A stretch of DNA of 27,725 nt from Candidatus Sericytochromatia bacterium (GTDB lineage: Bacteria; Cyanobacteriota; Sericytochromatia; S15B-MN24; UBA4093): contig JAKFCT010000085.1 of NCBI GenBank assembly GCA_036676495.1, positions 1-27,725 on the forward strand, in the 5' to 3' direction. A program made the translations under genes and the position numbers. Positions 3,783 to 26,207 of this stretch are shown here, in pieces; positions within the stretch are counted from its first letter, which is position 1, and each line of letters begins with the position of its first letter. The notes below the pieces were generated by a model. It was given only the letters and a program-made list of their open reading frames with translations. It was not told the DNA's origin and searched no databases.

Positions 3783-4700
3783 TCAGCTTGACGACCAGGC
3801 GACGAGGGCCATGGCGGCAAGGCCCGCCACGACCAAAAGCGCATAATCCTGAGCCGTCGGGATGCTTTCCCCGATCTCCTTGGCAAGAGCGCTCATAAAG
3901 GCTGCGCTCGGAGAACGGAGGCCCACGCCGGCATCCGAGAGAATGATCCAACGCCGGCGGATCTCGTCCTCTTCCTCCTGGAGCCTGCCGAGTTCACCTG
4001 CAGTAAGATCCGGCATGGCCTTGACGCGATCGATGGCCGCGAGCCATTTTCCGGCATCCGCGCGCCAGGATTCCGCCTGTGGAAGGACAAAGAGGGGAAG
4101 CGTTAGATCGTAGAGGGACGGGTTCTCGATCAGGCGTCCAACATCCATATCCGAAAGTACGGGACCGGAGCCGGACAAACGCAGTTTGAGTTCGGACCAT
4201 CGCCCTGCCAAACTGTCGTTGGCCAGCCGGCGAAGCCCTCGAGACATTTCATCGGCCGACGCAAGTTCCTGGAGCGCCCCATCGGCCGTGGTGTCGGAAG
4301 GCCTGAGAAGCGAGAGGATGCCGCCCGCGGCAAGCCCAAAACCCGAGACGAGCCCGACGATGTTCCATTTTGGAGGAAGGAAACCCGTCGCCACGAAGGA
4401 AAGGCCGCTGGCGGCGAAAAAACCGACCGCTTTCGCCACATTCCCGGTATCGGTCCCGATCTTGGAATCCTGTGACTGGCCCAGATGAGGCCGGAGACCC
4501 ATCGTCCGTGAAACGGAGCCTGTAGGAAGAACCCGGCTATAGGGTCGACTTCCTAGAGTGAAGCCGCTTGCGGCCCAGATAAGTCCGTCGGCGGCCACGC
4601 CAGGCCAATTCCAGAGCCTGCCATCGGCCAGTCTACGGAGCTTTCCAGAAACAGGATGACCGATGCCTTGAGCGCCTTCGCTCTCCGGCAGGATGGTCAT
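3783..4700 (-). CDS. Putative virion membrane protein (LGQ leader, internal TM hairpin, C-terminal TM)
   Basis: ...RPHLGQSQD, hydrophobic segments AVGFFAASGLSFVATG and WNIVGLVSGFGLAAGGILSLL, C-terminal YALLVVAGLAAMALVAW. Confidence 0.7.
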   Translation of the reverse strand: MTILPESEGAQGIGHPVSGKLRRLADGRLWNWPGVAADGLIWAASGFTLGSRPYSRVLPTGSVSRTMGLRPHLGQSQDSKIGTDTGNVAKAVGFFAASGLSFVATGFLPPKWNIVGLVSGFGLAAGGILSLLRPSDTTADGALQELASADEMSRGLRRLANDSLAGRWSELKLRLSGSGPVLSDMDVGRLIENPSLYDLTLPLFVLPQAESWRADAGKWLAAIDRVKAMPDLTAGELGRLQEEEDEIRRRWIILSDAGVGLRSPSAAFMSALAKEIGESIPTAQDYALLVVAGLAAMALVAWSSS

Positions 4701-5692
4701 TCGGAGGACTCGTGAGGAGCCCCCCTTTCGTCGTAGACGACGTAACCGCCGTCCTCGCCAGGCGCGCGCGTCCCCCCATCATCGAGCGCGTGCTGGACCG
4801 CGTCCCCGGTTCAGCCGAAGGGACCTGCGGTTCTGCATGCCCCCCCGGTCGCCGGCCCCCAGTAGTCGACCCAGAAGGATTCTGCAAAACCGCTCGACGG
4901 AGGCGTTCCAGGAGGCGGAGGCGATCCGCAAGGTTCCCATACGACGATCGTTTTCGTCGGGCGATCGCAGTCGGACGGATCCAGGATCTGCCATCCCGAA
5001 GCGAGATCGACCGCGAGGCCCTCACGGCCTTCGACCTCTACCCGAAATGTCTCCTTTCCAAGGCAGAGATTCGCCCGAGCGCCGCGTCCCGGATCGACGA
5101 CGGCTCCCCACCAATACCGTCCTGCCCTAGGAAGGCCAGGGACGACGACGCGCTCCACGATCTTCCCTTTCGCCGTGTGATCTCCAAGCCTGGCACCGCA
5201 GCCGATCTTGAAAGGCTCCGGCCTCTCGCCCTGCAGCCTCATGAGGAGAGGTTTGCCGAAGATGATCCCGAGGCTCACGATATAGGCGGGAATCGAAAGC
5301 CAAGGGAGCGCGAGAAAGGTTCCGGCGATGGCCGCGCCGGCGGAGACGACGAGCGTCGTTTTTACCGCCGAAAGCTTTTCGTCACGCGCCCCGATCAAGC
5401 ATTCCTGGAGATCGAAGAGAGCCAAAAGCCCATCCCTCGGGATCGAAATGGACCCGGCCCCCCGGTGTCGCTCGATGGCCTGGGTCATCGCGCCGACCCG
5501 ATCAAGGATCGGTTGCCAGTCCCCAGGAGGGCAATAGGCGTGGAACTCTATCGGGTTGTCATTGGCGAACCCGATGACATCCTCGACCGCACGGACGACG
5601 AGCTCGCCCTCTTCGGCGGAAATCTGGATCGTCTGTCCAGGCGCCGGAGACGGCGCGAGAACCGGGCCCTGTCCAAGGAACGCGACTGCCAT
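4697..5692 (-). CDS. Putative virion membrane protein with in-frame TGA at 4811-4813 (candidate Sec/readthrough); 4811..5692 if the TGA is a true stop
   Basis: Starts MAVAFLGQGP and has a TM hairpin and Cys-containing C-terminal part. After ...CRTAGPFG-TGA the frame continues TGDAVQHALDDGGTRAPGEDGGYVVYDERGAPHESSE to a TGA at 4697-4699 that overlaps the next ATG (4700). Confidence 0.7.
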
Positions 5693-5693
5693 C

Positions 5694-5825
5694 CTACCGC
5701 TTCTTCCGTTTCCCCTGGAAGACGCAGGTGCCCTTGACCCGTTTGCCCGAACGCATGTGGCTTTTCCGCCAGAATCGTCCCGGCCGGCACTTCCGGCCGC
5801 CGAGCTCAAGGAGCGCGTCGGCCAT
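5694..5825 (-). CDS. Small basic Arg/Lys/Cys-rich protein (possible nucleic-acid-binding core protein)
   Basis: Manual translation MADALLELGGRKCRPGRFWRKSHMRSGKRVKGTCVFQGKRKKR, with a strong GGAGGAGGT RBS. Fills the gap exactly. Confidence 0.7.
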   Translation of the reverse strand: MADALLELGGRKCRPGRFWRKSHMRSGKRVKGTCVFQGKRKKR

Positions 5826-5828
5826 CGT

Positions 5829-6092
5829 TCACCTCCTCCTCGTGGGGCTCCGTGAACCGACCTCGATCACCGTCTCCGGATGGTGCCTTTGTCCGATACC
5901 GAGGTATTTCAGGGGACACGAGATCGGCTCGACGAGCGGATCCCCGCGCTCCTTTCGGAACTTGACTCTGCGATCGGTTCCGACCTCGGCGATCCGTCCG
6001 TCGCCGAGCTTCTTCCTGAGGACGGCTCCGCGCCCGGGTTTGCGGTAGCAATGCCCGGGCGAAAGCTCGCTCAGCCGCGCGAGCTGTCTCAC
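5829..6092 (-). CDS. Hypothetical basic protein
   Basis: GTG start 2 nt after the upstream TAA, with GAGG RBS: MRQLARLSELSPGHCYRK... Confidence 0.6.
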   Translation of the reverse strand: MRQLARLSELSPGHCYRKPGRGAVLRKKLGDGRIAEVGTDRRVKFRKERGDPLVEPISCPLKYLGIGQRHHPETVIEVGSRSPTRRR

Positions 6093-6094
6093 GT

Positions 6095-6349
6095 TTACTG
6101 CCTCGTGAGCGCCGAAAAATCGTTCCAGGCCCGGATGCCCGCCATAAGCGCGACCAGCCATCCGACGGTCCGCCAGCCCCCCCGGAAGCTGAGTCCGGCC
6201 GTGACGCCGAGGGCGGTAGCGAATCCGTTCGAGATCAGTCCGACGACGCGGTTGTCGAGCACGCTCGACTGCCCGAGGATCGGTCCGCGGTATCCGAGAT
6301 TCGGCCGTCTCTGGATGATCGGCATGCCCATCCGCGTAACCATGTTCAT
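6095..6349 (-). CDS. Small 2-TM membrane protein with LG/LGQ leader
   Basis: MNMVTRMGMPIIQRRPNLGYRGPILGQSS... followed by two hydrophobic helices. ATGA-coupled to the upstream gene. Confidence 0.7.
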   Translation of the reverse strand: MNMVTRMGMPIIQRRPNLGYRGPILGQSSVLDNRVVGLISNGFATALGVTAGLSFRGGWRTVGWLVALMAGIRAWNDFSALTRQ

Positions 6350-6657
6350 CGCTTCTTCCTCCTCGCCGAGTCCCGGGTTCCGAGATCGGCAACCGACGCG
6401 TTCATGCAGTCCGTCAAAGAACAAGCCGGCGTTTCCCGGATCACCAGGCGGCGCTTCTTTCCAGCTCCAGCCAGGGCACCGGGAGCTACGAAGTAGAAAC
6501 GGTTGCCCCGCCTCACCGCCGCGACCGAGGCGCGGGAGGCGCCCGCAAGATCCGCGACGATGATCCGGTCCCCCACAAGTTCGCTCCTGGCGATCCGGAG
6601 CGGCCCGTCCGGCCGCTTCATTCCCTCCAGGGCTCAGGCATCGACCTTGATTTTCAT
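6346..6657 (-). CDS. Hypothetical protein with in-frame TGA at 6634-6636 (candidate Sec/readthrough)
   Basis: ATG 6657 overlaps the upstream stop (ATGA) and reads MKIKVDA-TGA-ALEGMKRPDGPLRIA...PACSLTDC. The downstream ATG 6621 has GGAGG only 2 nt away, which is poor spacing. Confidence 0.65.
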
Positions 6658-7028
6658 GCCCATCGGCCTCCTTCCAGCGCGCGACCCGTTTCCCGGGCGA
6701 TCCTCAAACTTGACAGCATCGCCTCGGCCGCGACGTACGTCTCCTCGGCGCGCTCGATGGCAAGGGCCGCCTCATCGAAGACCGCGGCCGTCTTTTCCGC
6801 GCCCAGGAGGTCGACCAGCGCCTCGGCTTGTCTGGCGATCCCCTCGGCCCTTTTCCTGGCGCCAACAAGCTTTGCGTGGGCCCGTTCCCGTTGGGCCAGG
6901 ACGGTTTCCGACGGGTGATCGACGGGAGGCGGTTGGGGCGTGAACGGGAGCCTCACGACCTCTTCCTGACCGAGAAGAACTCTCGGCCCGGAGAGCCGCG
7001 AAAGCCCTGTCCACCGTCTGGATGCCAT
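6654..7028 (-). CDS. Helical/coiled-coil protein with LGQ leader
   Basis: MASRRWTGLSRLSGPRVLLGQEE..., GGAGG RBS, Ala/Glu/Arg-rich helices. Confidence 0.75.
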   Translation of the reverse strand: MASRRWTGLSRLSGPRVLLGQEEVVRLPFTPQPPPVDHPSETVLAQRERAHAKLVGARKRAEGIARQAEALVDLLGAEKTAAVFDEAALAIERAEETYVAAEAMLSSLRIARETGRALEGGRWA

Positions 7029-7036: not shown

Positions 7037-7819
7037 CTAAAACGCAATCCCGACGACGATCACTCCTACCGCAAGCGCGGCGATCCCTATCAGCGCGAAC
7101 GATTTACGCCGCTTCGACGAGAGACCATCCGCGCATGCCGTCACGAGATCGGTCGCATGGATGTCTCGGACCGTGGCCTGGACCAGATCGGTCTCGGGCC
7201 GCGCAAGCTCGTCGGCGAGTCTGGCCCGGAAGGAACGCGCATCGGCAAGGACGAGGGGATCGATCGCGAGTCCGCAGGCCTCTTTTCGTTCTAGGTCGCT
7301 TGCCTCGGCAACCTTGGCGATGGATGAATCCAGAGCCTCGAGTACGGCCTCGGCTTCGGGCCTGGCGAAATCGACGGAGGGACCCGGGGCGGGGCCGGCC
7401 TGAGTTCCGCCAGGGGGCGGCGGCATCTCTTCTCTCGGCGGTTCTGCAGGCCCTTCGTCCTGGCCCAGATGATAGGCTCCGTAAGAGCCCATCCGGAGCG
7501 GAACCCAGGCGCGGCTGGACGCGTCAAAAGCCGTTCCGGCGCGGAGGGCCGCGTCGCCTCCCCTCAACTGACTTGACATCCGAAGCACTTGAGCGGGTGC
7601 CTGGGTTTCGCGGCCGGAGATGCCCTTGCGGGTTGCCTTGGGCCTTCCGAGCCTGACCTCTTCCGGATTCCTATCCATCTCGTTCCACGCCGCCGGCCTG
7701 GAGCGCGTCACGCGCGGCATCATGCCCGCGCCGCCTCAACCCAGTCCGGGTTCTTCTTTCTCCGCGCCCTCCGGGCGCGGACCGAGCGGCATCGACTTTC
7801 CTCAACCCAGGGCGCTCAT
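7037..7819 (-). CDS. Tail-anchored putative virion protein with two in-frame TGA codons (7802-7804, 7736-7738)
   Basis: GAGGAGG RBS, then ATG 7819: MSALG-TGA-GKSMPLGPRPEGAEKEEPGLG-TGA-GGAGMMPRV..., in frame with the 7037..7723 ORF. Contains YHLGQDEG, a two-Cys helical domain and C-terminal TM FALIGIAALAVGVIVVGIAF. Confidence 0.7.
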
Positions 7820-8610: not shown

Positions 8611-10389
8611 CTATGAGACGATTATACCAGCCGCCACGAGGGTCGCAAGAAGTGCCGCGCCGGCGGGCGCGCCGATTCCAGAAAGCCTTGATGCGACCGG
8701 CGGTACCTCAGGGATCGCCCAATCGCGCGTCCTGTCTTCGTCGATGGGCGTTCCGTCCGGGCCCAGAGCGCGTCCGGTCTCGGGATCGCGAATCGCCCCC
8801 GTTGGCTCGCCGGTCCTCGGATCCAGGATCGCCTGGGTCTCAGGATCGAAGACGAATCCGGTCCTCGGATCGACTTCAAGGCTCGTCGGCCGTCCGTTCC
8901 GGAGCACCGCCCCGGTCGTCGGATCGATGGAAAGGACATTCCCGGTCACGGCGGCGCTCCTGGCGAGTTCCTCCTCGGCCGCGCGATAAAGCGCATCGAG
9001 GAGGAGTTGGTCCGTGCACCACAGGAGGAACGCCACGACGTCGTTCGGAAGATCCCTCATTCCGAGGGCGATTTCCTTGAATTCCTCCGCGGAGCGGGCC
9101 CCGACCGCGTTGATCGACCCCACCAGGAGCCGTATGGCGAAGACGAGCGCGGCGCTTCCAGCGGACTGGAGCGTCGCGAAATCGGCCGCTCCGGAGGAGA
9201 GGACGCCCGATCCCGCGTCGCCGGCGATCGCGTTGACGGCCGTCGGAATGGCCTGCTGGGCCACGCCTGCGACCCTCGGATCCGCATCGCGGGCGAGACG
9301 GGCCACGATCGCGGACAAGCCGGCCGAAATGGCAAGATCGATGCCCGGCTGGCCGCCGCTGAGGACCCCGTCGGCCAGTGCGTTCCCCCCCGCTTGGATC
9401 TCGGCAGAGCGGACTCCAAGATTCCGGTAGGCGTACGTGGCGAGATCGACGATCGAGTTCCCGATGCCCGTCGCTCCGGCGATCGGGCCAAGCATGAAGG
9501 AGACCGCCAGTCCCATGGTCGACATGGCCCTCGCCATCCTCGTGACCTCGCGGAGGCGTTTTCCGAGCTTATGATCGATGCAGTCGATGATCGTCGCGAT
9601 ATTGACGAGATAGCGCGCGGCCAGTTCCGTGCGGATCGCGCGGTCCGTCCGTGGGAAAAAATCGCTCATGTCCGGCACATAGATCCTGAAGTTCGCAAGG
9701 GAGAGCGGAGCGCCATCCTTTCCGCGCCAGACCGGGGTCCCGAACGCGCAACGCCGGAACCAGTCGGTATCCTCGATGTCCGGAAATGGGATCTCATCGA
9801 AGACAGCCAGGGCCTGCTCATAATTTGTGATGAGGGCAGGCCAGTCCCGAGGCAGGATAACGGGATCGGCAAGAGCCCAGGAGAGTTCTCCCGCCCAATG
9901 CCGCAAAAGCCGTGGATCGCGGGGCCGAAAGTTCTCGACGGCCGCATGAGCCTGGTCCGCGGCGAAACTCGAAGGGCCTCCCCATGCAGCCTCGGTTTGC
10001 GCCAGGACGTCCGAGAAATAGGCCCTTCTCTCGGCGACCTCGCAGACGACCGAAGCGATGCCTGGCGGGCAAACGATGAGGGTGACGGTTCGGGGTCCGC
10101 CCGGCATGACGTCTTTGGACTGGCTGCCCGGAATCTCGGCCGAGATCCGGATGATCGAGGCGGGAGGAAGGGGACCGATATCGGTCACCCAGCGTCCGTC
10201 GGTTCCCGCTTGGCCGGCCGATGCCGCGACGGGCGCCAGCCAGCCGCGGATCGGGTCGAACGGAACCACGTCCGCCCTGACCCCGACTCCGCCAAAAGGG
10301 GCCAGATCGTCCGCCCTGAGAACAAGGACCTCCACGCGCGTGGGAGGGAAGGCCGTGCCTGCAGCCTGTCCAAGGGCGGAGAATCTCAT
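8611..10389 (-). CDS. Large putative virion protein (LGQ leader, hydrophobic middle region, DPxTG repeats, C-terminal TM)
   Basis: MRFSALGQAA..., Gly/Ala-rich hydrophobic helices, five DPxT(G/Q) repeats and C-terminal AALLATLVAAGIIVS. Start position uncertain. Confidence 0.75.
   Translation of the reverse strand: MRFSALGQAAGTAFPPTRVEVLVLRADDLAPFGGVGVRADVVPFDPIRGWLAPVAASAGQAGTDGRWVTDIGPLPPASIIRISAEIPGSQSKDVMPGGPRTVTLIVCPPGIASVVCEVAERRAYFSDVLAQTEAAWGGPSSFAADQAHAAVENFRPRDPRLLRHWAGELSWALADPVILPRDWPALITNYEQALAVFDEIPFPDIEDTDWFRRCAFGTPVWRGKDGAPLSLANFRIYVPDMSDFFPRTDRAIRTELAARYLVNIATIIDCIDHKLGKRLREVTRMARAMSTMGLAVSFMLGPIAGATGIGNSIVDLATYAYRNLGVRSAEIQAGGNALADGVLSGGQPGIDLAISAGLSAIVARLARDADPRVAGVAQQAIPTAVNAIAGDAGSGVLSSGAADFATLQSAGSAALVFAIRLLVGSINAVGARSAEEFKEIALGMRDLPNDVVAFLLWCTDQLLLDALYRAAEEELARSAAVTGNVLSIDPTTGAVLRNGRPTSLEVDPRTGFVFDPETQAILDPRTGEPTGAIRDPETGRALGPDGTPIDEDRTRDWAIPEVPPVASRLSGIGAPAGAALLATLVAAGIIVS
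8765..8928 (-). repeat. Protein-level DPxTG repeats (IDPTTG, VDPRTG, FDPETQ, LDPRTG, RDPETG)
   Basis: Five degenerate copies are visible in the translation and as ggatc-containing DNA repeats. Confidence 0.8.
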
Positions 10390-10570: not shown

Positions 10571-11107
10571 CTACAGGATCTGCGTCAGGAGGATCGCCGC
10601 CACCACGGCCACGCCGGCGCCGACGATCGGGAGGGTGAGGTCGGGTCCCGGAGCTCCCGGGACCGTGATGGTGCCCGGCGGAGGGAGTTGCCCGACTTCC
10701 CGTTCCGAAGCCCTCACCCGGTTCTTGAAATCCTCGTTGATCTTCTCGAGTTCCGTCACCCGGTTCTGCCGGCGCTCGACGGCATACGCGCCGTAGTTCG
10801 GGGGCGTGTAGGCCTCGACATCGGTCTGGATGTCGGAGACCACCGACCGGTACCGGTAGGCCGGGCTCGTCGGGTTGTTCGGGGAGCCCAGCCAGTCGAA
10901 GATCGCGCGCCGGGCCGAGACGCTCGCCAGGATGTTCGTCCTGCGCACGAGGTCGTCGTAGGCGGCGGTGGCGGCCTTCGCTCGCTGGTACCATTCGAGA
11001 TCGGTGGCGCCGAGCGTGTAGTTCCGCATCCTGGCTCCCAGGACGGGACTCGCAGGACGGAAATAGTTGTTGAACCCGGGACCCGCGAGGCGTGCTCCAT
11101 GGAACAT
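10571..11107 (-). CDS. Tail-anchored putative virion protein (YTLGAT leader)
   Basis: AGGAGG RBS, PVLGARMRNYTLGATD, helical body, Pro linker and C-terminal LPIVGAGVAVVAAILL. Confidence 0.8.
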   Translation of the reverse strand: MFHGARLAGPGFNNYFRPASPVLGARMRNYTLGATDLEWYQRAKAATAAYDDLVRRTNILASVSARRAIFDWLGSPNNPTSPAYRYRSVVSDIQTDVEAYTPPNYGAYAVERRQNRVTELEKINEDFKNRVRASEREVGQLPPPGTITVPGAPGPDLTLPIVGAGVAVVAAILLTQIL

Positions 11108-11125
11108 ATTGATCCTCCTGCGATC

Positions 11126-11554
11126 CTATCTCCGGGCGATGAAATATACCGCCGCGCCGACGCCGACGGCGGCCACGGCGCCCACGATGAGCCAGGGGAA
11201 GCCGCCGGCCTGGGGAGGACGGACGGGAGGAGCGGCCCCGCCAGCCGCCTCGTGTCTTCGAACGGATTCCCGGACGTCCTCGTAGAGGTTCTTCAGGCAC
11301 CTTCCTCCCTGGTAGAGTCCGATCACGCCTCCCTCGCCGAGTTTGCGCTGGCACTCCTCGTACCTGGCCCGATACTGCCCCATCAATCCTTCCGGCAGCC
11401 TCCCCAGGAGGTCGATGATTCCTGAAGAGAGGCCTTCGACGTCGATATCCTCGAGGAAGTCCTGGCCGAGATAGGGCGTGAAGGGATTCCCGAGTCTCGG
11501 TCCTGAGAACGGACCGGTCCCCAAACCCGGGCGCGATAGAAGACGCATCATCAT
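11126..11554 (-). CDS. Tail-anchored putative virion protein (LG..LG..LGQ leader)
   Basis: MMMRLLSRPGLGTGPFSGPRLGNPFTPYLGQDF..., two Cys and C-terminal GGFPWLIVGAVAAVGVGAAVYFIARR. ATGA-coupled. Confidence 0.8.
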   Translation of the reverse strand: MMMRLLSRPGLGTGPFSGPRLGNPFTPYLGQDFLEDIDVEGLSSGIIDLLGRLPEGLMGQYRARYEECQRKLGEGGVIGLYQGGRCLKNLYEDVRESVRRHEAAGGAAPPVRPPQAGGFPWLIVGAVAAVGVGAAVYFIARR

Positions 11555-12081
11555 GCGGTTTCCTCCTTGCGGGGCACTGCGTGGCGATGGTTGAAACCGC
11601 CGAGCCCGCGCCGGCCATCGGGAAGGACGGGTACGGGCGGCGCCGAAAGCTCGCTCATGTTCTCGAGGCCCGTGACGATGCGCTCGAGAGTGGCCTCGTC
11701 GAGTCGTTTTTCCAGACGTTCGCCGAGCTTTCTCCAAGTCTCAAGCACCGGCTTCACGTCCTTTTCCCAGTATTCAGGAAGTTTGTCGTCGACCAGTTTC
11801 TCGATCAGCGATTCACTACGCTCGACGCTTTCGACGCTCCGGAATCCAGATTCCCGGGAAGGGACGAGAAAGAGATAGACGAAGGCGTAGATCCAGATGG
11901 CCGCGACGGCGGGGATCGTATAGGCGCCGTTAAAGACCTGGAGCGCGGCGTGCACGGCCTGCGGCAGTCCCGTATAGAGGAGAATCCCGGCAGGACCGAC
12001 GACGAAAGCCGATACCGCCACCAGTCTCCCATGAAGGCGGGTCGTCTTCCGGTACCATTCCCGGATGGGTTGTCCGGTCAT
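11551..12081 (-). CDS. 2-TM membrane protein with C-terminal coiled coil
   Basis: MTGQPIREW...VAVSAFVVGPAGILLY...IPAVAAIWIYAFVYLFLVP, followed by a charged helix. TGATG-coupled. Confidence 0.75.
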   Translation of the reverse strand: MTGQPIREWYRKTTRLHGRLVAVSAFVVGPAGILLYTGLPQAVHAALQVFNGAYTIPAVAAIWIYAFVYLFLVPSRESGFRSVESVERSESLIEKLVDDKLPEYWEKDVKPVLETWRKLGERLEKRLDEATLERIVTGLENMSELSAPPVPVLPDGRRGLGGFNHRHAVPRKEETA

Positions 12082-17394: not shown

Positions 17395-19184
17395 AGGGGC
17401 ACCTCGAGCTCGTCGTAGTCGTCGAACTCCATCTGATCTCCGAAACGGAGCCACGGCTCCGTGAAATCGCTGTTCCAGGGCTCGCCGGCGATGTAGATCC
17501 GGGCCCATGTGTGATGGATCGATCCGCCGTCGCCTCCGAAGGCGAAGCAGAGTTTGTCGTCCTTCGAACCCACGCCGATCGCAAGCGCCGCGCACATCGC
17601 CAGGTAGAGGCACCCCGGCTCATCGCAGTTGTGAACCAGAGAACCATTGTCCAGGAGGAAGTTGCCGTTGTCGGCCACCGTGAGATCGCAGCAGCGCGTC
17701 TCCGGCTCGAGTTCCACCGATCTCAAGCGACTCGAGACGAGTTCCGGACGTTTACGATCTCGCTCGTTCTTGTACTCGAACAGGCGGTACATCGCGGGCT
17801 TATCCTTCCACGGTCTCTGCAGATGACCGCTCAGAGGCCGACCGAGGACCAAGTGCATGAAACGTAGTTGCCTGGCCAATGCCTCTGACTTCGTGTTATG
17901 GACGAGATGGGCTTTGGTCGCCCACCGGCCGTGCGTAGGAACGAAACCGTCTCCGAGCGTGTATGCTCCGACCAAGACGCTCATTGCATCTTTGGAAAGG
18001 GATAGATACCCGTCCGGAAAGCGCTTCGTGCCAGCATTCCCTCCGAAAAGAGTTGCCAGTCTCTTGGTGAAGGGAGATGTATTGAGACGAAGCGTGACGA
18101 GTCCATCTTTGCGGAGATGTTCCCCATACGGCTGGTCGATAACGGCCAGGTTTGTCTTGAGGCCTCCGATCGCATGGGGGTCGTTCATGCCGATCTTGGC
18201 CCGGTAGGAAGCGTCCTTCCGCTTCCCTCGTCCCATCGGCTCGGACCACCCTTCGGCCACGTAGAGACCTTCGATGTGAAGCTGGGCGCTTCCCAGCCCC
18301 AGGGCGTGTTCAAGATTTGCTCCTGCTTCAGGGATGCGCGCCGCACAAGCCACCGTATACAGCTTGCTTCTCGCCGTCTGTTTTTCGGCAAGCAACTCGG
18401 CCAGCGTCATGGTCACGAGTTCATGGGTCGTCCGTCTCTTGGACCGAAAGACGTAAAGCCTGTGGTTCTCCGTGCAACGGAACGACGTCCCGTTGGTCAG
18501 AGAGATCTTGTAGACAGGAAGTGTCCCCTTGTGGATGAAGCGCGTGATGGGCTTGAACTCGAAGCGCTCCTGCGCTTCGTTGTAGGAGACAACCTCCCGA
18601 TCCCAGAATGACTGTTCCAGTTCCCCCGCTTTGATGACCTCGTAGTAGCGGTCCGATTTTCTGCGTGTGATGATCGGCTGGTCGAATGGGATGCAGTCAC
18701 CGATGAACATCGGACGCGGCGAATAACTCCCGCGGTGGAACTCCGGCTCGAGCTCCTCGAGCGCCGCGTAGAAGGGCTCCATGAACTTCCGGAGGGCGTC
18801 GATCGGCAGCCGCGCGTGCCTGACCATGCGCTCCGGCGTCTGGATGACCTCGATGCCGGCCGGGTCGTTCACGTAGAAGTAGAGATGCCGCATGAGGATG
18901 TCGCAGGCCTCCGCCTGCAGGACCTTGTTCTGGTGGATCTCCACCTCTTCGCCGCGGCTCTGGGCGTAGTCCTGGACGAGGATCGAGTAGCGGGCCGCGG
19001 CCTCGCGGGCCGCGTCGACGACGAGCTTCTCTTTGCGGCCGTCCTTCACGAGGCGGCACATGCGGCCGATCTCGAAACGGATCCCGTCCCACGTGTCCGG
19101 GAGATGGGTGTAGCGCGCCTCTCCGCGCTCCGGCGACGGGGCGTCGAGGGCCCGGGAACTCATCTTGTAATGGGTCTGGCGCAC
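17391..19184 (-). CDS. Transglutaminase-like cysteine protease/transglutaminase interrupted by an intein
   Basis: The spliced product (241 aa) has YVNDPAGIEVIQTPER...FIGD|CDE...IHHTW...WNSDFT, i.e. a GDCD/E Cys plus His and Asp triad of the transglutaminase-like superfamily. Confidence 0.85.
   Translation of the reverse strand: MRQTHYKMSSRALDAPSPERGEARYTHLPDTWDGIRFEIGRMCRLVKDGRKEKLVVDAAREAAARYSILVQDYAQSRGEEVEIHQNKVLQAEACDILMRHLYFYVNDPAGIEVIQTPERMVRHARLPIDALRKFMEPFYAALEELEPEFHRGSYSPRPMFIGDCIPFDQPIITRRKSDRYYEVIKAGELEQSFWDREVVSYNEAQERFEFKPITRFIHKGTLPVYKISLTNGTSFRCTENHRLYVFRSKRRTTHELVTMTLAELLAEKQTARSKLYTVACAARIPEAGANLEHALGLGSAQLHIEGLYVAEGWSEPMGRGKRKDASYRAKIGMNDPHAIGGLKTNLAVIDQPYGEHLRKDGLVTLRLNTSPFTKRLATLFGGNAGTKRFPDGYLSLSKDAMSVLVGAYTLGDGFVPTHGRWATKAHLVHNTKSEALARQLRFMHLVLGRPLSGHLQRPWKDKPAMYRLFEYKNERDRKRPELVSSRLRSVELEPETRCCDLTVADNGNFLLDNGSLVHNCDEPGCLYLAMCAALAIGVGSKDDKLCFAFGGDGGSIHHTWARIYIAGEPWNSDFTEPWLRFGDQMEFDDYDELEVPL
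17628..18695 (-). mobile_element. Intein with LAGLIDADG homing endonuclease (356 aa)
   Basis: Starts CIPFDQPI. Block B CTENHRL, LAGLIDADG-like GLYVAEGW and GAYTLGDGF, block F CDLTVADNGNF, ends VHN|C. Visibly lower GC than the flanks. Confidence 0.93.
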
Positions 19185-19186: not shown

Positions 19187-21220
19187 TTAGCCCTTTGCCT
19201 CCTTCTGCGCAGAAGCCGGCTCCGCGGCCGGGGCCGAGCGGGAGGCGTTTCTTTCGGCGACCTGCTTCCAGTAGCCGTCGACCTCCTCGAAGAAGCAGGC
19301 CCTGAACGCCTCATAAAACTCGTCGGCCCATTCGGTCCCGAAGGCTTCCTTCTCGTCGGGGGCGAGATGGGGCTCGAGAGCCCCGAGCATCGTCTTCCAG
19401 TCGCGCGTCCGGATGTAGACCGAGAAGACCCGGCATTGCTTCCGGAACGCGTGGTCGATCGGGTCCTGGTATCCGTCCATGAAAAATCCAAGGAAGGATC
19501 CCGGAGGGACCTCGGCCTTGACCTGGCGGGCCCACTCGGTCACGATCTGCCTTCCGCTCGGATCGCGCATGAACTTCGCGATGAAGTCCTCGGACATCTC
19601 GGATCCCTCCGCCTTCTGGGCCGGATCGGCCGCCGGCTCCTCCTGGGCCGGACGCCTGGCATCCAGGAGCGAGGTTACGTTCCCGGGGCCCAGACCCATC
19701 TCAGCCTTCTTGTGGTCGAGGATGGAGTCGATGCCTTTTCTCAGTTCCGAGACCAGCTCCTTGGCCCCACGGACGAGCGAATCGGTCGTGTTCGCCGTGG
19801 CGATCTGCCGCTCGAGATCGAGCTTTTCTCGGATCAGCGACGCCTCCGTGGCCAGCTTGTCCTTGATGAGAGCGTGCTCCTTCTCGAGCATCTCCGCGCG
19901 GAGTTTGTGCTCCCTCTCGAGGTCCTTCTTGCCCTCGGAGATCTTGGATTCGACCGACTTTTCGAGATCGGCCATCTCCCCTCTCGTGCGATCGATCTCC
20001 CGCTGGGAGTCTTTTCGTTTTCCGTCGAGCTCGGACCGCAGCGCCGTCTCTCGCGTGTCGAGATCCTTCCGGAAGAGGTCGATCTTCTTCTGCTCGAGAT
20101 CGAGGATGAACTTCTGGTTCTTGTCTTCGCGCTCGACGCGCTTTTCCTCCTCCAGGCGCAGGCGGTCCATTTCCCGGCGATGCCGGTCCTCGGCCTCGTC
20201 GCGCTCGCGCTTCCACTGGTCGTCGCGGTCGGCGCGTTCGTGGGCACGGGCGGTTTCCTCCCGGGTCCTCCGTTCCTCTTCCTTCGCCCGCTCTTCCTCC
20301 CGCATCCGGTTCGAGCGCGCGTCCTGGTCGCGGATGAGATCCTGGAGGAACGCGGAGGGGCCGGTCTTCCGGTCCTCGGCTTCCCGCGTGAGAAAACCCT
20401 TCTGGAGCTCTCCCATCTGCCGGATGGCCTCGGCGGCCGCGGTCTCCCCCACCACGACGGGCTGCGGGGCGCGGGGCCAATCGTATGGCCGGCCGTACGG
20501 GTCCCGCGCGTAGGGATCCGGGGGGCCCTGGGGTCCCCACGAAGGAGGCCGTCCGGGAACGGCCGCGCGGTCGCGCCGCTCGACCCTGGCCGCCTCGTCC
20601 TCGTGCTCCCGGGCCGGGAACTTGGGGGGCCCGTAGTTCTCGCTCACGCGCTGCTCGCAGATGTACTCCTTGGAGTCGGAAGGCAGCCTGAGCCGGATGA
20701 GGTACGTGCCGCTCCCGTACGTCTGGCCGAGCTGCTCGGGATCGTAGGCCCCGATGTGGGTTCCGAGGTGGCCGTGGGGCGGATGCGTGCGCTCGACCCG
20801 GAAGTGCGGCTGGGAGACGTAGTTGTTGAGGCTCCCGGCCTGTCCGGCGGCGGTGAAGTTGAAGCCGAAGCTCGACGGGTCGTAACCTGGGGCTTTCTGA
20901 GGCGCGGGTTGAGGATTCCCCACGGGCACCTCCAAAACGTGGGCATGAAGGGATTCGGCTTCAGCTTCTGGTTCGGGCGCCGGTGCGGGCTCCGGCGCTG
21001 CTTGGGGAGGCGCCGGTTCGGTCGCTTGGACGAATCCGGCGGGGACCTCATGGAGTCGGCCGTGAAGCTTGGCCGTGTTTATGATGCCCGTGATCTGCTT
21101 GGGCCGGCAGTCGAAGCGCCGGGCGATCTCATCCTTGGAAACGCCCTGGAGAAAAAGTTGCCGGATCTCGACTTTCTCTTGGCGCTTGAGCCGCTTGAGG
21201 GGAATCTGCGTCTGCGCCAT
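19187..21220 (-). CDS. Large protein with N-terminal HTH and long charged coiled coil
   Basis: IRQLFLQGVSKDEIARRFDCRPKQITGII (HTH), Pro-rich linkers, YGSGTY-containing domain, E/R/K coiled coil and helical C-terminal domain. Confidence 0.75.
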   Translation of the reverse strand: MAQTQIPLKRLKRQEKVEIRQLFLQGVSKDEIARRFDCRPKQITGIINTAKLHGRLHEVPAGFVQATEPAPPQAAPEPAPAPEPEAEAESLHAHVLEVPVGNPQPAPQKAPGYDPSSFGFNFTAAGQAGSLNNYVSQPHFRVERTHPPHGHLGTHIGAYDPEQLGQTYGSGTYLIRLRLPSDSKEYICEQRVSENYGPPKFPAREHEDEAARVERRDRAAVPGRPPSWGPQGPPDPYARDPYGRPYDWPRAPQPVVVGETAAAEAIRQMGELQKGFLTREAEDRKTGPSAFLQDLIRDQDARSNRMREEERAKEEERRTREETARAHERADRDDQWKRERDEAEDRHRREMDRLRLEEEKRVEREDKNQKFILDLEQKKIDLFRKDLDTRETALRSELDGKRKDSQREIDRTRGEMADLEKSVESKISEGKKDLEREHKLRAEMLEKEHALIKDKLATEASLIREKLDLERQIATANTTDSLVRGAKELVSELRKGIDSILDHKKAEMGLGPGNVTSLLDARRPAQEEPAADPAQKAEGSEMSEDFIAKFMRDPSGRQIVTEWARQVKAEVPPGSFLGFFMDGYQDPIDHAFRKQCRVFSVYIRTRDWKTMLGALEPHLAPDEKEAFGTEWADEFYEAFRACFFEEVDGYWKQVAERNASRSAPAAEPASAQKEAKG

Positions 21221-21682: not shown

Positions 21683-22057
21683 TTAAGTATTTCTCCCGTG
21701 GATCTTATCGTGACAGGAACGGCAGACCCACCGAACCTCATACGGTTTCCGGTAGTCGTCGTGATGTCCCTCGATCTTTTGTTTAGCGAAGAACAGAGCA
21801 CAGACTGAGCACTGGGCCGGTTTCACAATCCGCCCTTTCCAGACGGCCGTATCCAGAAGTTTCCATGCCCGTTTCTGAAGCTTCCGGATTTCCGGTGAAT
21901 GTGGCCGACATCGCAGACCCTTCTTCAGCCTGCGATTGAAGGCACTCAGGCATGGCCCGCAGCGGGTGAACCGTCTCGGCCTTCCGTTCCGAACCTCTTT
22001 GACATAGAACGATCCGACGGGCAATTCTGCCCGGCAGTCTTTGCAGACCTTTCCCAC
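21683..22057 (-). CDS. HNH-type endonuclease with N-terminal zinc ribbon
   Basis: CKDC..SFY..CGPC, then KPAQCSVC..IEGHHDDYRKPYEVRWVCRSCHDKIH, a typical phage HNH pattern. Lower GC. Confidence 0.8.
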   Translation of the reverse strand: MGKVCKDCRAELPVGSFYVKEVRNGRPRRFTRCGPCLSAFNRRLKKGLRCRPHSPEIRKLQKRAWKLLDTAVWKGRIVKPAQCSVCALFFAKQKIEGHHDDYRKPYEVRWVCRSCHDKIHGRNT

Positions 22058-22394: not shown

Positions 22395-23543
22395 ATGTAT
22401 AAGCGTCTGCATGATTCCGTCCCGGACTCCCTCAAACTCGGTAAGTTGAGCGACTTCGCTTTTCGCTCGTGGACCGTAGCCCTTTCCCAGGCGGACTGGT
22501 ACGGCAGGCTCACTGCGAAGCCTGAAAAGTTCGTGGTCCAATGCTTCCCGAACCGAAGGGAGGTCACCCCTGAACAAGTGAAGGCTGCGCTCGACGAGGT
22601 AGCCGACGTGATGGGCGAAGGGCTCATCCATCTGTACAAGAGCTCCGACGGGAAGGAGTACCTGGTCTTGCACAACATCGAGGAGCATAACCCCAGGCAG
22701 ACGCACTCGAGAGCAGCGTCAGCGTACCCGCCCCCCCCGAAGGGTCTCTGCCCCTGCGTCAGATACTGTCCCCAGGAGGGCCAAGGACCCTTCGGAGGAA
22801 GGGAGTTCAGGTTCTACCCCGGTCTCTTCGAGAAAGCGGGAAAGGAGGAGGGAGGGAAAGGCTGTGGTGCAAGTGCGTGCTTTGGCGTGCATGAGCGTGC
22901 AGATGCGTGCTTTGGCGTGCAAGGGCGTGCAGAGGCGTGCTTGACCGTGCATGATAAAGATCCTTCCTCTCCTCTCCCTTCCTCTCCTCTCCCTTTAGAG
23001 GGAGGGACGGAAACGGGGGGGTGTGGGGGGGGGCAGGGTCCCATGGACAGGCTTTCAGCCGAATTCGAGGCCCTGACGGGCAGATCGGCCTTCCGTTCAG
23101 AGGAGGAGTGTGCCAAAACGGCACAGTTACTCGCCCCGATCCTGGCCGCGCGGCCCCTGGAAGAGCTTCTTGGCGTCATGTCCGCAAGGATCAGCCGCGA
23201 ACGGACGCGCGGAACCAAGGGACCCGCGTCGATGCGCTATTTCGTCGCCGTCTTTTCGGATCCAAGGTCCTTCGGGCCGGCACCGCCGAAATCCGCCCCA
23301 TCCAAGGCCGATGAACCCCGAAAGCCGCCGGCCGAGGACTATAGCCGCCTCCGCGAGATCGCCGAGGACAAACTTTCGGCGCTCCCCGAGGACGAACTAT
23401 CGCTCTGGAAAGAGGACGCCGAGCAAGAGGCCGCTCGCTCCGGAGTGATCTCGTTCATGCGTCCGCTGTACGTGAAGACCAGGCTCGCCGATCGCGCCAT
23501 CCAGACCTTCGGCATCTCAATCAAGGGAGGGGATCCGCCATGA
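22395..23543 (+). CDS. Phage replication initiator / replisome-organiser-like protein
   Basis: AAGGAG RBS. N-terminal KL..LSD..F..W....SQADWYGRL...GLIHLY..DGKEYL pattern of phage initiators, central low-complexity linker carrying DNA repeats, C-terminal ..SMRYF.. helical domain. Confidence 0.75.
   Translation: MYKRLHDSVPDSLKLGKLSDFAFRSWTVALSQADWYGRLTAKPEKFVVQCFPNRREVTPEQVKAALDEVADVMGEGLIHLYKSSDGKEYLVLHNIEEHNPRQTHSRAASAYPPPPKGLCPCVRYCPQEGQGPFGGREFRFYPGLFEKAGKEEGGKGCGASACFGVHERADACFGVQGRAEACLTVHDKDPSSPLPSSPLPLEGGTETGGCGGGQGPMDRLSAEFEALTGRSAFRSEEECAKTAQLLAPILAARPLEELLGVMSARISRERTRGTKGPASMRYFVAVFSDPRSFGPAPPKSAPSKADEPRKPPAEDYSRLREIAEDKLSALPEDELSLWKEDAEQEAARSGVISFMRPLYVKTRLADRAIQTFGISIKGGDPP
22861..22993 (+). 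repeat. Iteron array / putative replication origin inside rep
   Basis: Nine (C/G)GTGC units at exact 10-bp spacing (22866-22950), with a higher-order 30-bp repeat gcgtgctttggcgtgca..., followed by a pyrimidine tract (ccttcctctcctctc x2). Confidence 0.8.
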
Positions 23544-23860: not shown

Positions 23861-23885
23861 CCCAGAGGCGCATATCCGATATACT
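23857..23885 (+). promoter_or_regulatory. Sigma70-type promoter probably giving a leaderless mRNA
   Basis: TTGACC-17 nt-TATACT, with ATG 23892 six nt downstream and no RBS. Confidence 0.65.
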
Positions 23886-23891
23886 TTGGCC

Positions 23892-24560
23892 ATGGCCCGC
23901 GAGACCGCGATCGCGATAGGCCTCGGGCAGCCGCCCGGCGTGGAAATAGAGGTCGCATCGACCTCGGAGCTTGCGCCGGGCGACCTCATCTGGATCTCGT
24001 TCCCCTTCGGCGCGCGCGGATGGTTCAAATACGGCTCCGAGGAGACTTTCACGGTCGTCTCGGTCGATCCGGACGGGACCGTCAACGTGATCGACGAGGG
24101 CGGGGATCCCTTCGTCCTTCCCGGAGGCAGCACGGCCGAGCTTCGGGCGAAGCTGAGAGACCAGACGAGTTTCAGCGCGATTACGATCGTCCGGCCGGAC
24201 CTCGGGCCTCCGGGGTCCGGCCAGGTCGCCCAGGGTCTCGGAATGCCTGGGGGCTATCGCGAAATCCCCGTCATGACCTGGAGCGACCTCAGGGTCGGCG
24301 ACTACGTGCTTCTCGGCCAAGCGACCGGCATCCCCACGCTGGTCCGCGTCGAGGACGATGATCCGGAGCTTCTCATCGCGCGCGTGATCGGGACGGAATC
24401 CCCGAGCGCCCAGCCGGGAGACCTCTGGTATTTCGAGGGGCCGGGCCGGATCTTCGCTCCCGACGCGGCCTTCCGGGGCCAGCCCATCGAGGAAGGCTGG
24501 TATGTGGCGGGCGCGGCCGTCGTCGCCGCCGGCGCTGCCCTTGTCCTCGCCTTCTGGTAG
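23892..24560 (+). CDS. Tail-anchored protein with LGQ leader and two SH3/KOW-like repeats
   Basis: MARETAIAIGLGQPP..SELAPGDLIWI.. and ..SDLRVGDYVLL.., with C-terminal WYVAGAAVVAAGAALVLAFW. Confidence 0.7.
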   Translation: MARETAIAIGLGQPPGVEIEVASTSELAPGDLIWISFPFGARGWFKYGSEETFTVVSVDPDGTVNVIDEGGDPFVLPGGSTAELRAKLRDQTSFSAITIVRPDLGPPGSGQVAQGLGMPGGYREIPVMTWSDLRVGDYVLLGQATGIPTLVRVEDDDPELLIARVIGTESPSAQPGDLWYFEGPGRIFAPDAAFRGQPIEEGWYVAGAAVVAAGAALVLAFW

Positions 24561-24570
24561 GAGGTGATCT

Positions 24571-25101
24571 CTGCCCTCTCAACTCGAGATCGCCTTTTCC
24601 CCCGGAGCCCTCCCTGTTGCGCGATCGTTCCGGGGCTATCCGTGGTGGGAAAGCCGGGAACGCGCCAAACCCATCCGGTGCCGCGAGTGCGGCCGGCCCA
24701 CCAACACCTACCATCGGAAGATCTCGACTTCCATGGGCTGGAAGCTCGTCCGGCTCCACCGCCTCGGCCTTGAGGACGAGAACCAGTTTTTCCACGTCTC
24801 CGAGTTCGACGTCCTCGGCGGCCGCGGAGAGTCCGGCACGCTCTCCGTCTGGGGCCTCGTCGAGGAGCGGGCGACGGTCGACCCCAGGAAGAAGACCTCC
24901 GGCTTCTGGAGGCTGGCCCCGGACGGGCTTGCCTTCGTCCGCCTCGAGGCCATGATCCCGAGATACGCGATCGTCCGCTATCGGAGCGAAGTGGTCGGTT
25001 TCGCAGGTCCCGCCGTCGGCTTGGCCGAGGTCCTCGGAAAGGATGGCCGGTTCGACTACCGGGAGCTCCTCCAGTCTCCCCTCCCCTCTCTCCTCCGTTG
25101 A
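24571..25101 (+). CDS. Conserved phage-type Zn-ribbon/winged-helix protein; probable CTG start
   Basis: The frame extends upstream of ATG 24733 through IRCRECGRPTNTYHRKISTSM. The only start-like codon near the AGGAGGT RBS is CTG at 24571. WGLVEE..SGFWRL..G..FV..FDYRELL resembles a phage family I recall. Confidence 0.65.
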   Translation: MPSQLEIAFSPGALPVARSFRGYPWWESRERAKPIRCRECGRPTNTYHRKISTSMGWKLVRLHRLGLEDENQFFHVSEFDVLGGRGESGTLSVWGLVEERATVDPRKKTSGFWRLAPDGLAFVRLEAMIPRYAIVRYRSEVVGFAGPAVGLAEVLGKDGRFDYRELLQSPLPSLLR

Positions 25102-25127
25102 CATCCCCAAGCGGCCCATGATAAGAT
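25098..25127 (+). promoter_or_regulatory. Sigma70-type promoter with extended -10
   Basis: TTGACA-18 nt-TAAGAT with TGn immediately upstream of the -10. Confidence 0.6.
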
Positions 25128-25137
25128 TCCTCCGGAG

Positions 25138-25287
25138 ATGGACGGTCGGGACGCCCCGGAGGGCGGCCCGGCTCCGGGAGGACCGGTGGCCTTCGTCTGG
25201 TTCGTCATGGCTTATTGCGTGGCGAGCTTCATCCTTGCGGCGGTCATGCTCTCCCGCCTCCCGAAAGACAAGGGAGCCGGCAGATGA
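25138..25287 (+). CDS. Small single-TM protein (49 aa)
   Basis: Manual translation MDGRDAPEGGPAPGGPVAFVWFVMAYCVASFILAAVMLSRLPKDKGAGR. Its stop overlaps the next ATG (ATGA). Confidence 0.6.
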   Translation: MDGRDAPEGGPAPGGPVAFVWFVMAYCVASFILAAVMLSRLPKDKGAGR

Positions 25288-25703
25288 CGGCCATTTCCTG
25301 GCCCGTTCTCGCGCGAAGCCCGAAACAATCGCTCGGGGCCGTGGCGCCTCGCAGGCTCGGACTTTCCGGATCTATCTCGACCTCCCAGCGCATGGCCGTC
25401 TCCGTCCTTTCGGCGCTCTCCATCGCGGGCGTCCATAGCGCGCTTAACCCGTCGCTCTTCACTCTCATGAGCTTCGCCACGCGTCCCGAGGCGAAGAAAC
25501 TCGCGATGAAGGGCCTCTGGATCGGATTCGGCGCCTCGACTCTCGCCAGCGGCATGATCTGGGTCGTCTTTTCGGACTGGCTCCCCGCCCTCATCTCCGA
25601 GGCGACGGCCCTCGGGCTCTTCGCCGCCGGCGTCTGGGCCTTGAACCAGGCCGCCCCGGTCACGATCCCCAGGATCGAAGAACAGGAACTCCCCGGACCG
25701 TAG
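25284..25703 (+). CDS. Multi-TM membrane protein with LG leader
   Basis: MTAISWPVLARSPKQSLGAVAPRRLGLSG..., three hydrophobic segments. Confidence 0.75.
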   Translation: MTAISWPVLARSPKQSLGAVAPRRLGLSGSISTSQRMAVSVLSALSIAGVHSALNPSLFTLMSFATRPEAKKLAMKGLWIGFGASTLASGMIWVVFSDWLPALISEATALGLFAAGVWALNQAAPVTIPRIEEQELPGP

Positions 25704-25715
25704 GGAAGGAAGACG

Positions 25716-26207
25716 ATGAGGATCTCGATGCCTCTCGGGGCGGCCAGGATCGCGCTTGGCCAGGGCCAGAACCTGCTCGTTCCGCGAGGCATCCGTCAGG
25801 GCCAAAGAGCCCAGCCGGCCGGCCCGCCCGAAGGCATCCGCGAGGGCGATAGACGAATCCCCCCCGGCAAAGCCGCGCTCACCGTGCCGGAGGCGAAGGA
25901 TCTCCTCGCCTCGCTCGATCTCGTCGTCCGTCCCATCGAGAAAGAGGAGCGCGCCCTCGCCGAGCACGAATGCCTCCGGGAGCTCCAGGCCGGCCCCTTC
26001 CCCCAGGTCGTCCGCCTCAAGGCCAAGGTCGCCGCGTTCCTCGAAACGGCCGCCCCCGGCGACCTCTTCCCCGTCTCCGCCGGAGAGCTCGAGGTCCTCG
26101 AGAAAGCCGTCGCGTGCGCGGAGTCCCTGGGCCGGGGCCGGGCCGTGAAAGTCGCCGTCGCCGCCGGAGGCGGCGCGGCCGTCCTCGCCCTTCTACTTCT
26201 GGCTTGA
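25716..26207 (+). CDS. Tail-anchored protein with LGQ leader and two-Cys helical domain
   Basis: MRISMPLGAARIALGQGQ...EAKDLLASLD...HEC...LEKAVACAE...AAVLALLLLA. Confidence 0.8.
   Translation: MRISMPLGAARIALGQGQNLLVPRGIRQGQRAQPAGPPEGIREGDRRIPPGKAALTVPEAKDLLASLDLVVRPIEKEERALAEHECLRELQAGPFPQVVRLKAKVAAFLETAAPGDLFPVSAGELEVLEKAVACAESLGRGRAVKVAVAAGGGAAVLALLLLA

Follow-up and report, generated by a model that had tools for sequence, protein, structure and literature searches.

The window analysed here is the whole of contig JAKFCT010000085.1 (27,725 nucleotides), a 27.7-kb member, C85, of a 4.1-Mb metagenome-assembled genome assigned to Candidatus Sericytochromatia. Its G+C content is 64.8%, against 65.9% for the genome, and no terminal overlap was found when the contig was searched for one. 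Only five of its products match a known family in Pfam, PHROG or NCBIfam: a GDP-sugar epimerase, an HNH endonuclease, a replication initiator, an intein and an unnamed PHROG. The element is, in this sense, a 'dark' mobile element. Two features of it are the subject of this study. Many of its proteins begin with a disordered leader that contains or ends in a Leu-Gly motif, most often Leu-Gly-Gln (LGQ), and one minus-strand gene at 17391-19184 encodes a transglutaminase-fold enzyme that is interrupted by the intein. NCBIfam added no annotation to the motif carriers. As argued below, the motif is on balance probably the site at which this enzyme, a candidate protease, removes the leaders.

As long open frames occur on both strands at high G+C, and codon-position G+C alone is ambiguous, the genes were defined by comparison with L005, a stretch collinear with window positions 292-20782 at 75-81% DNA identity, which is itself part of an 82-kb metagenome contig. 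The mismatches between the two sequences show a sharp three-base periodicity nearly throughout, and its phase fits a tight series of minus-strand genes running from 21244 to 539. Start codons were picked by us where both genomes share an aligned start and the frames upstream diverge or close. Several of these starts have further support: in L005, the reading frame begins with the very Met of MKGALLGQ, the aligned counterpart of MAVAFLGQ in the window; the starts at 6349 and 17394 overlap the stop codons of the genes upstream; and gene calls in distant homologues of the 8611-10389 protein begin just ahead of its ALGQ.

The original prediction, made from the letters of the window and a list of its open reading frames, named ten LGQ tripeptides closing N-terminal leaders. 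All ten are present, eight on the minus and two on the plus strand, with their codons at the positions given in Table 1. Nine of the ten coordinates given for them are start codons of the respective frames, and the remaining one, 7819 for YHLGQ, is wrong, the frame starting at 7723. The variants named alongside are present as well: the proteins with starts at 11107 and 17394 have YTLGAT, and PALGD, RALGA, PSLGA and QSLGA are found in others. Such a raw list proves nothing by itself, because LGQ occurs 22 times in the six-frame translation of the window, which is near chance, and for 14 of these a Met lies in frame no more than about 32 codons away. In the 30 minus-strand proteins with conservation-verified frames (6176 amino acids, aa), by contrast with the raw count, LGQ was found 11 times where 1.7 were expected, and 7 times where 0.35 were expected within the first 35 residues (Poisson 9e-8). 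It ranks first among all tripeptides in these proteins, and none of 5000 shuffles within the leaders gave more than 5. When the plus-strand genes are added, LGQ lies in the first 35 residues of 9 of 37 window proteins (24%), compared with 32 of 3080 proteins (1%) in the remainder of the genome, a background that comes from a crude gene caller. One of the nine, in the 3-542 protein, looks like chance, as it comes after a classical signal peptide and its counterpart in L005 is LVQ. Two of the ten predicted sites lie far from the N-terminus, at residue 86 of the 7037-7723 protein and residue 73 of the 3783-4700 protein; in the latter, the conserved FTLG/S upstream is a better candidate site than PHLGQ.

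The motif is also conserved in relatives. At six sites aligned with L005, it is identical at 18/18 positions while the flanks are identical at 84/120, and a seventh orthologue in L005 reads IGQ. In the 13847-14512 protein, the flank changes from PRPYA to SERYD in L005 with LGQ kept. All four homologues of the 8611-10389 protein that have the N-terminus carry ALGQ, which is kept at about 50% identity beneath leaders of 5, 7 and 12 residues. The wobble positions vary (CTG, CTT or CTC for Leu; GGC, GGA, GGG or GGT for Gly), indicating that selection acts on the protein. The motif is therefore real and non-random, as had been predicted. Its last residue is another matter. At the orthologous site of the 16080-16703 protein, the window reads PSLG/A, and its 37%-identical orthologue in L006, part of an IMG/VR contig, reads PWLG/Q; at homologous sites, the residue after LG can be Q, A, R, E, K, S or L. 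What is conserved is a core of [Y/F/H]-x-[L/M]-G; the position after it varies, and Gln is its commonest occupant in this lineage only.

We also built a position matrix for the six residues up to and including the Gly (P6-P1, numbered back from a putative cut after the Gly), trained solely on sequences outside the window. It found 7 window matches of at least 9 bits, 6 of them within the first 100 residues, whereas shuffled sequences gave means of 2.2 in all and 1.1 in the first 100 residues, with a maximum of 5 in the latter. The best matches fall in the N-terminal parts of carriers, and the 10571-11107 protein is the top one. One match is due to chance, as it falls on the endonuclease motif of the intein.

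The carriers mostly belong to one class of protein. Ten window proteins have a hydrophobic C-terminal anchor, and in all of them the first 100 residues include [LIF]G[QA]; if only the first 35 are counted, the motif is present in 8/10 anchored proteins versus 5/27 others. Three anchored carriers are encoded on the plus strand at the right end of the window (23892-24560, 25716-26207 and, tentatively, 26736-27254), a stretch for which there was no relative to compare. The tail-anchored protein at 16774-17394, whose gene starts within the stop codon of the enzyme gene, has further LG sites at residues 14-15, 34-35 and 49-50. The largest carrier is the 8611-10389 protein, in which a run of D-P-x-T-G repeats precedes the anchor and Cys and Trp residues are invariant. 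A Sec signal peptide was considered for the Leu-Gly leaders and rejected, since a hydrophobic core is missing from them and F, Y, H, I or L frequently occupies position -3. The same minus-strand block does encode ordinary export signals, one of lipoprotein type (LSGC) and one classical signal peptide, at 12081-12593 and 12874-13347, so that both sorts of N-terminus coexist.

The gene at 17391-19184 contains an intein recognised by Pfam (Intein_splicing, E 9.4e-12), with the junction FIGD/C...HN/CDEPGC, that is, Cys as its first residue, His-Asn at its end and Cys at position +1. It is inserted exactly at the invariant, presumably catalytic Cys of the enzyme (GD/C...HN/CDE), so that the enzyme is presumably inactive until splicing. 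The L005 version of this gene has an open frame shorter by about 69 codons. Homologues without an intein, about 74 proteins of about 220-280 aa, have no Pfam annotation, and one of them, P0009, is 98% identical to the window N-extein. GDCDE, HH.W and D..TE are invariant in alignments of 19 and 27 homologues, and the order of Cys (in GDCDE), His (in HH.W) and a later Asp matches the catalytic triad of the transglutaminase-like superfamily. An AlphaFold2 model of the intein-free homologue P0010 has a predicted local distance difference test (pLDDT) score of 91, and its top Foldseek match is Legionella LapG (prob 0.99, E 7e-3). VIA, a structure search independent of Foldseek, returned the putative protease 3kd4 (Z 12.2), factor XIII (10.8), TG3 (10.3), TG2 (10.2), PNGase (9.2), LapG (9.1), TglA (8.8), PeiP (8.7) and PeiW (8.5); the 14 best VIA matches (Z at least 8) are all transglutaminase-core proteins or domains. 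Three unnamed viral proteins in BFVD have the same fold (E ≤0.001). At the sequence level, Pfam Transglut_core (PF01841) did not match the window protein and matched 7/19 homologues weakly (best E 0.0011), the LapG/BTLCP family (DUF920) was listed neither for the window protein nor for the 19 homologues, and a profile search against PDB sequences found nothing, LapG included. The transglutaminase-fold enzyme split by an intein that had been proposed from the letters is therefore borne out by the fold model, the invariant Cys-His-Asp and the splicing domain. When the enzyme was modelled together with the N-terminal 60 residues of the 13847-14512 protein, the predicted complex scored 0.10 against a mark of 0.32, which counts neither for nor against binding.

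Table 1. Leader-motif carriers, the candidate protease and products with family matches in the window. A slash marks the putative cleavage position.
Feature	Coordinates	Strand	Remarks
Candidate leader protease, transglutaminase-fold Cys-His-Asp enzyme	17391-19184	-	start GTG 19184 or ATG 19163
N-extein	18696-19163	-	
Intein	17628-18695	-	family match, within 17391-19184
C-extein	17394-17627	-	
Carrier, coupled gene	16774-17394	-	tail-anchored; leader MRAYTLG/ATELLELG, LGA codons 17379-17371; GTG start overlaps enzyme stop (GTGA)
Carrier	16080-16703	-	internal conserved PSLG/A, LGA codons 16523-16515; L61 and G62 invariant in alignment
Carrier	13847-14512	-	tail-anchored; 31-residue leader to YALG/Q, LGQ codons 14425-14417; PLG/L upstream
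Carrier	11126-11554	-	tail-anchored; three leader sites PGLG/T, PRLG/N and PYLG/Q; LGQ codons 11470-11462
Carrier	10571-11107	-	tail-anchored; leader PVLG/A and NYTLG/A, LGA codons 11014-11006
Carrier	8611-10389	-	592 aa; tail-anchored; leader MRFSALG/Q, LGQ codons 10374-10366; C-terminal DPxTG repeats
Carrier	7037-7723	-	tail-anchored; AYHLG/Q at residues 84-88, LGQ codons 7468-7460; AFQIG/Q in L005
Carrier	6654-7028	-	soluble coiled-coil protein; leader ends RVLLG/Q, LGQ codons 6974-6966
Carrier	6095-6349	-	84 aa; leader PNLG/Y and PILG/Q, LGQ codons 6277-6269; ATG overlaps upstream stop (ATGA)
Carrier	4811-5692	-	membrane protein; leader MAVAFLG/Q, LGQ codons 5677-5669
Carrier	3783-4700	-	tail-anchored; conserved GFTLG/S (4562-4548); PHLGQ (4484-4476) in a stretch absent from L005
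Carrier	23892-24560	+	tail-anchored; leader MARETAIAIGLG/Q, LGQ codons 23922-23930; no relative for comparison
Carrier	25716-26207	+	tail-anchored; leader MPLG/A and IALG/Q, LGQ codons 25755-25763; third-position G+C (GC3) 0.83
Tentative carrier	26736-27254	+	tentative tail-anchored protein, starts MPIFG/Q; frame ambiguous
GDP-sugar epimerase	1224-2351	-	family match
HNH endonuclease	21683-22057	-	family match
Replication initiator	22395-23543	+	family match
Unnamed PHROG	24733-25101	+	family match

The enzyme family and the family of the coupled gene (16774-17394) carry leaders of the same kind. A leader of 8 or more residues is present in 64 enzyme homologues, and in 62 of these it contains [LMIV]G, whereas shuffled leaders gave a mean of 21.7 and a maximum of 33. 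When the last [LMIV]G dipeptide of each leader is taken, which was our choice, P2 is L in 40 and M in 18, P4 is often Tyr, Phe or His, and the residue after the Gly (P1') is R in 40, E in 8, Q in 5, L in 3, S in 2, I in 2 and A and K in 1 each. The coupled-gene family has 84 representatives in a library of 1.8 billion proteins. A regular expression detected the AEELIELG-type box in 62 of them, 53 of which have a leader of 6-26 residues before it; of the remaining 22 representatives, which lack the box by this expression, a few are visible misses. In 49/53 leaders, [LMIV]G directly precedes the box. Of the 53 leaders, 51 have G at P1, 46 have L at P2 and 38 have Y, H or F at P4, and A is the next residue in 50. 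Nine further members begin M-A-[E/D]..., exactly at the P1' residue. Variable leaders with a fixed final dipeptide, together with leaderless forms that start at the next residue, have the look of a propeptide that is removed. Some members of this family (P0140, P0147 and P0115) begin with a tandem pair of [LM]G-AEELIE[LM]G units.

From these sequences we infer a cut after the Gly, an enzyme responsible for it and a purpose for the leader, as follows. Disordered N-terminal leaders of at least 12 window proteins, typically 6-31 residues long, often with several motifs and mostly borne by tail-anchored membrane proteins, would end at [Y/F/H]-x-[L/M]-G before a variable residue, Q or A here. The cut would place Leu or Met at P2 and Gly at P1. 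Papain-like enzymes have a specificity dominated by a hydrophobic P2, which fits this arrangement. The co-encoded protease would trim the leaders of about a dozen substrates during assembly or maturation and, in most relatives, its own N-terminal leader as well. Tandem motifs, such as PGLG, PRLG and PYLG in the 11126-11554 protein, would permit piecemeal degradation of a leader, whose role before removal may be in targeting or in keeping the proteins inactive. Cleavage before Gln would leave an N-terminal Gln able to cyclise to pyroglutamate, which is speculation. That the Leu-Gly leader motif is the cleavage site of the co-encoded, LapG-like Cys-His-Asp protease seems to us a probable account, if by no means an assured one.

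Several points weigh against cleavage by this enzyme. The window enzyme and its closest relatives (P0009-P0011) have no LG leader of their own, and the leaderless members of the coupled-gene family could be miscalled starts. The fold does not separate proteases from transglutaminases, deamidases and isopeptidases. Some tripeptide or other reached at least 7 occurrences in 45/5000 shuffles, LG dipeptides are common in such a composition, and single variant sites (ALGD, SLGA and so on) are indistinguishable from chance. Both the start codons and the last LG of each leader were chosen by us, and two plus-strand carriers have no relative with which their conservation could be checked. In the large relative described below (G401), the association of LG[QA] with anchors is weak, with 3/9 anchored proteins versus 21/369 others as called by a crude gene caller.

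The alternative that survives best, although we regard it as unlikely, is that the leader motif is an uncut docking or targeting signal, or is cut by a host protease instead of the co-encoded enzyme. The motif does accompany one class of protein, the tail-anchored one; the leader on the enzyme itself could equally be a targeting tag, and the window enzyme manages without one. T4 propeptides, too, act as targeting sequences (PMC10052503). Against this alternative, the leaders are free in length and sequence except for their last residues. Moreover, the nine coupled-gene members that start right after the Gly imply that the part upstream is dispensable in the mature protein, and the gene beside the motif carrier, translationally coupled to it, encodes a cysteine protease fold.

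The original prediction left two options, cleavage at LG/X or cross-linking of the Gln. If the enzyme were a true transglutaminase, the Gln of LGQ would serve as the acyl donor, and the N-terminal tails would become cross-linked to lysines of structural proteins. The Z scores of 10-11 with factor XIII, TG2 and TG3 are in keeping with this, Q follows LG in 8-10 proteins of this lineage, and transglutaminases typically accept a Gln that lies in a flexible, hydrophobic stretch. Nevertheless, L and G are conserved and Q is not: A replaces it at an orthologous site, 50/53 coupled-gene leaders have A, and 57/62 enzyme leaders have R, E or another residue. Since the proposed donor is not conserved, cross-linking is disfavoured and in our view very improbable, and the key position that the Gln had been given is not supported. 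The Q/A exchange and the leaders of the enzyme and coupled-gene families favour the other option, cleavage at LG/X.

Two further readings, chance and a signal in the DNA, can largely be discarded. A genome of 65% G+C is rich in L and G, and LGQ might have been picked after a Met by coincidence; the six-frame count, the ready supply of upstream Met codons, the shuffles that raise some tripeptide as high and the unconserved LGQ of the 3-542 protein all agree with that. Such a coincidence is hardly credible in view of the counts in verified frames, the difference from the rest of the genome, the full conservation of the motif amid drifting flanks and its recurrence in outside families. Least credible of all is that LGQ is just the translated form of a nucleic-acid signal, be it a translation initiation region, a promoter or a methylation site: Gln is CAG at 10/10 sites and the next base is G in 7/10, but the Leu and Gly codons vary, the distance to the start codon ranges from 5 to 85 codons, and what relatives of 36-50% identity conserve is the amino-acid sequence.

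The proposed cleavage of Leu-Gly leaders by the window enzyme can be compared with several known systems. LapG, whose protease activity is proven, cleaves LapA in its N-terminal part between Ala108 and Ala109, at a site that is conserved in adhesins encoded near LapG homologues (PMC3032545). LapG/BTLCP and the window enzyme share a transglutaminase-core fold and a Cys-His-Asp triad, and the putative site of the window enzyme is likewise short, made of small residues and in the N-terminal part of the substrate. They differ in that LapG is periplasmic, regulated by cyclic di-GMP through LapD and directed at an Ala-Ala site in one or few giant adhesins, whereas the window system would have a dozen small, mostly tail-anchored substrates of a mobile element, cut at a Leu-Gly site after leaders of mostly 6-31 residues. 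Nor does the window enzyme, its intein aside, match any Pfam family above threshold at the sequence level.

The original prediction saw here a maturation system like those of eukaryotic viruses. Adenain, poxvirus I7 and African swine fever virus pS273R are cysteine proteases with Gly at P1 and an aliphatic residue upstream, cutting at (M/L/I)XGG/X, AG/X and GG/X. They belong to another clan, with the Ulp1/adenain fold, and no such structure is among the Foldseek and VIA matches of the enzyme family; the resemblance is functional only, with no evidence of common descent. In bacteriocin exporters, a C39 papain-like cysteine peptidase removes short N-terminal leaders ending in Gly. Double-glycine leaders, however, end in GG, GA or GS and include a conserved helix of greater length, and their peptidase is fused to the ABC exporter through which the cargo is secreted; the window system shows none of these features.

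Prohead proteases belong to the serine proteases of herpesvirus-assemblin type and cleave after Glu. Their substrates are HK97-type head proteins, in contrast to the cysteine transglutaminase fold, post-Gly site and membrane-anchored substrates of the proposed window system. In other respects T4 gp21, phiKZ gp175 and SPN3US gp245 resemble that proposed system: one element-encoded protease acts on many unrelated N-terminal propeptides at a short motif, with several sites per propeptide and self-processing. In SPN3US, 14 sites were reported in 9 substrates, 8 of which have N-terminal propeptides, and the propeptides are degraded at multiple sites (PMC10052503); the tandem motifs of the window leaders parallel this degradation. 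As prohead proteases of the T4 and phiKZ/SPN3US types already remove N-terminal propeptides from many head proteins (PMC10052503), the comparison with eukaryotic viruses is not needed. The novelty would lie in the class of the protease, in a cut at Leu-Gly and in substrates anchored in a membrane, the removal of N-terminal propeptides by phage proteases being known. Open-access full text in PMC and bioRxiv held nothing relevant on a transglutaminase-like maturation protease in phages.

We then consider what kind of element carries the system. The enzyme gene, the coupled gene and their neighbours are syntenic in the window, in L005 and in L006, which is the end of a 236-kb IMG/VR contig (G401). 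Motif-bearing neighbours and enzyme occur together in all three loci available, in line with the co-occurrence that the original prediction proposed to examine. G401 was the single contig found in IMG/VR with either query. The enzyme family was found neither in 400 genomes of the host's phylum nor in genome contigs, and tblastn gave no match in GenBank phages or PLSDB plasmids; its absence from the genomes, phages and plasmids makes the host assignment of the binned contig uncertain. The label of a bacterial virus given in the original prediction is not established for the window, in which capsid, portal and terminase all go unrecognised: Pfam, PHROG and NCBIfam gave no match to a prohead protease, HK97-type capsid, portal or terminase, an absence of matches that is no proof of the absence of the genes. 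It is plausible that the element is a virus. Candidates for a capsid protein are the products of 15188-15925 (245 aa) and 14523-15089 (188 aa), two minus-strand genes among the best conserved, the former with >90% DNA identity to L005. The predicted structure of the 15188-15925 protein is of low confidence (pLDDT 31) and mostly strand, and its ESM Atlas matches all score ≤0.85.

For G401, a Pfam search of the 95 proteins of at least 230 aa revealed no tailed-phage hallmark (terminase, portal or HK97-type capsid). The contig encodes an RF-1-type release factor, three RNA ligases, a DNA ligase, a HerA-like ATPase, an integrase, ThyX and several DNA methylases; it could represent a large virus of a non-tailed type or a giant element of some other sort. 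Further anchored proteins of G401, non-homologous to those of the window and including two thioredoxin-like ones, have an N-terminal LG[QAR].

In a broader view, which we put forward tentatively, uncharacterised large bacterial mobile elements or non-tailed viruses, with contigs of 28 to 236 kb among them and none in GenBank phages or PLSDB plasmids, would be widespread and would mature their tail-anchored proteins, and the protease itself, by Leu/Met-Gly cleavage with a LapG-like protease. It is likewise possible, at about the same level of doubt, that this maturation system represents a protease class new to viruses of bacteria, acting on the membrane proteome of a particle rather than on its capsid. 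If the cleavage is real, a new protease-substrate system could be read from sequence alone, through its motif, an enzyme family of about 250 residues without a Pfam model and tail-anchored substrates. It would give a first functional handle on 'dark' mobile elements that are missing from reference phage and plasmid collections, and would extend the roles of LapG-type proteases from the regulated release of adhesins to multi-substrate maturation. A short, portable Leu-Gly leader and its protease might also serve as a processing tag.

Some further observations concern the neighbours of the enzyme gene and the large relative. The minus-strand gene at 19187-21220, which is syntenic in L006, encodes a 677-aa protein with an N-terminal helix-turn-helix, a long coiled coil rich in Lys, Glu and Arg, and a conserved domain at the C-terminus. 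The internal E(Q/E)LGQ.YG.GTY of this protein is common to L006 and has LAV in L005, indicating that this LGQ is part of a folded domain and not of a leader. A 627-aa protein had no relatives in the viral-contig or genome-contig searches and only chance-level matches in the 400 genomes of the phylum. In L006, an enzyme paralogue (10693-11325, plus strand) follows the enzyme gene; its catalytic residues are lost (GDDVD for GDCDE and YQRVW for LHHVW), and an N-terminal RTLG/L is kept.

Two more loci lie on L010, one of the pieces (L010-L021) into which G401 was divided. The plus-strand gene at 138-716 encodes an N-terminus of four tandem [LM]G-CGC units (MG CGC DQLG CGC SEMG CGC DSLG CGC) followed by LLGQ, which resembles a series of Leu-Gly-type motifs alternating with pairs of Cys. 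At 737-3523 on the same strand, three adjacent paralogues, one of which has a DnaJ domain, share a different N-terminal motif, E-M-S-G-[VI]-F-D-[YW]-[FL]-K.

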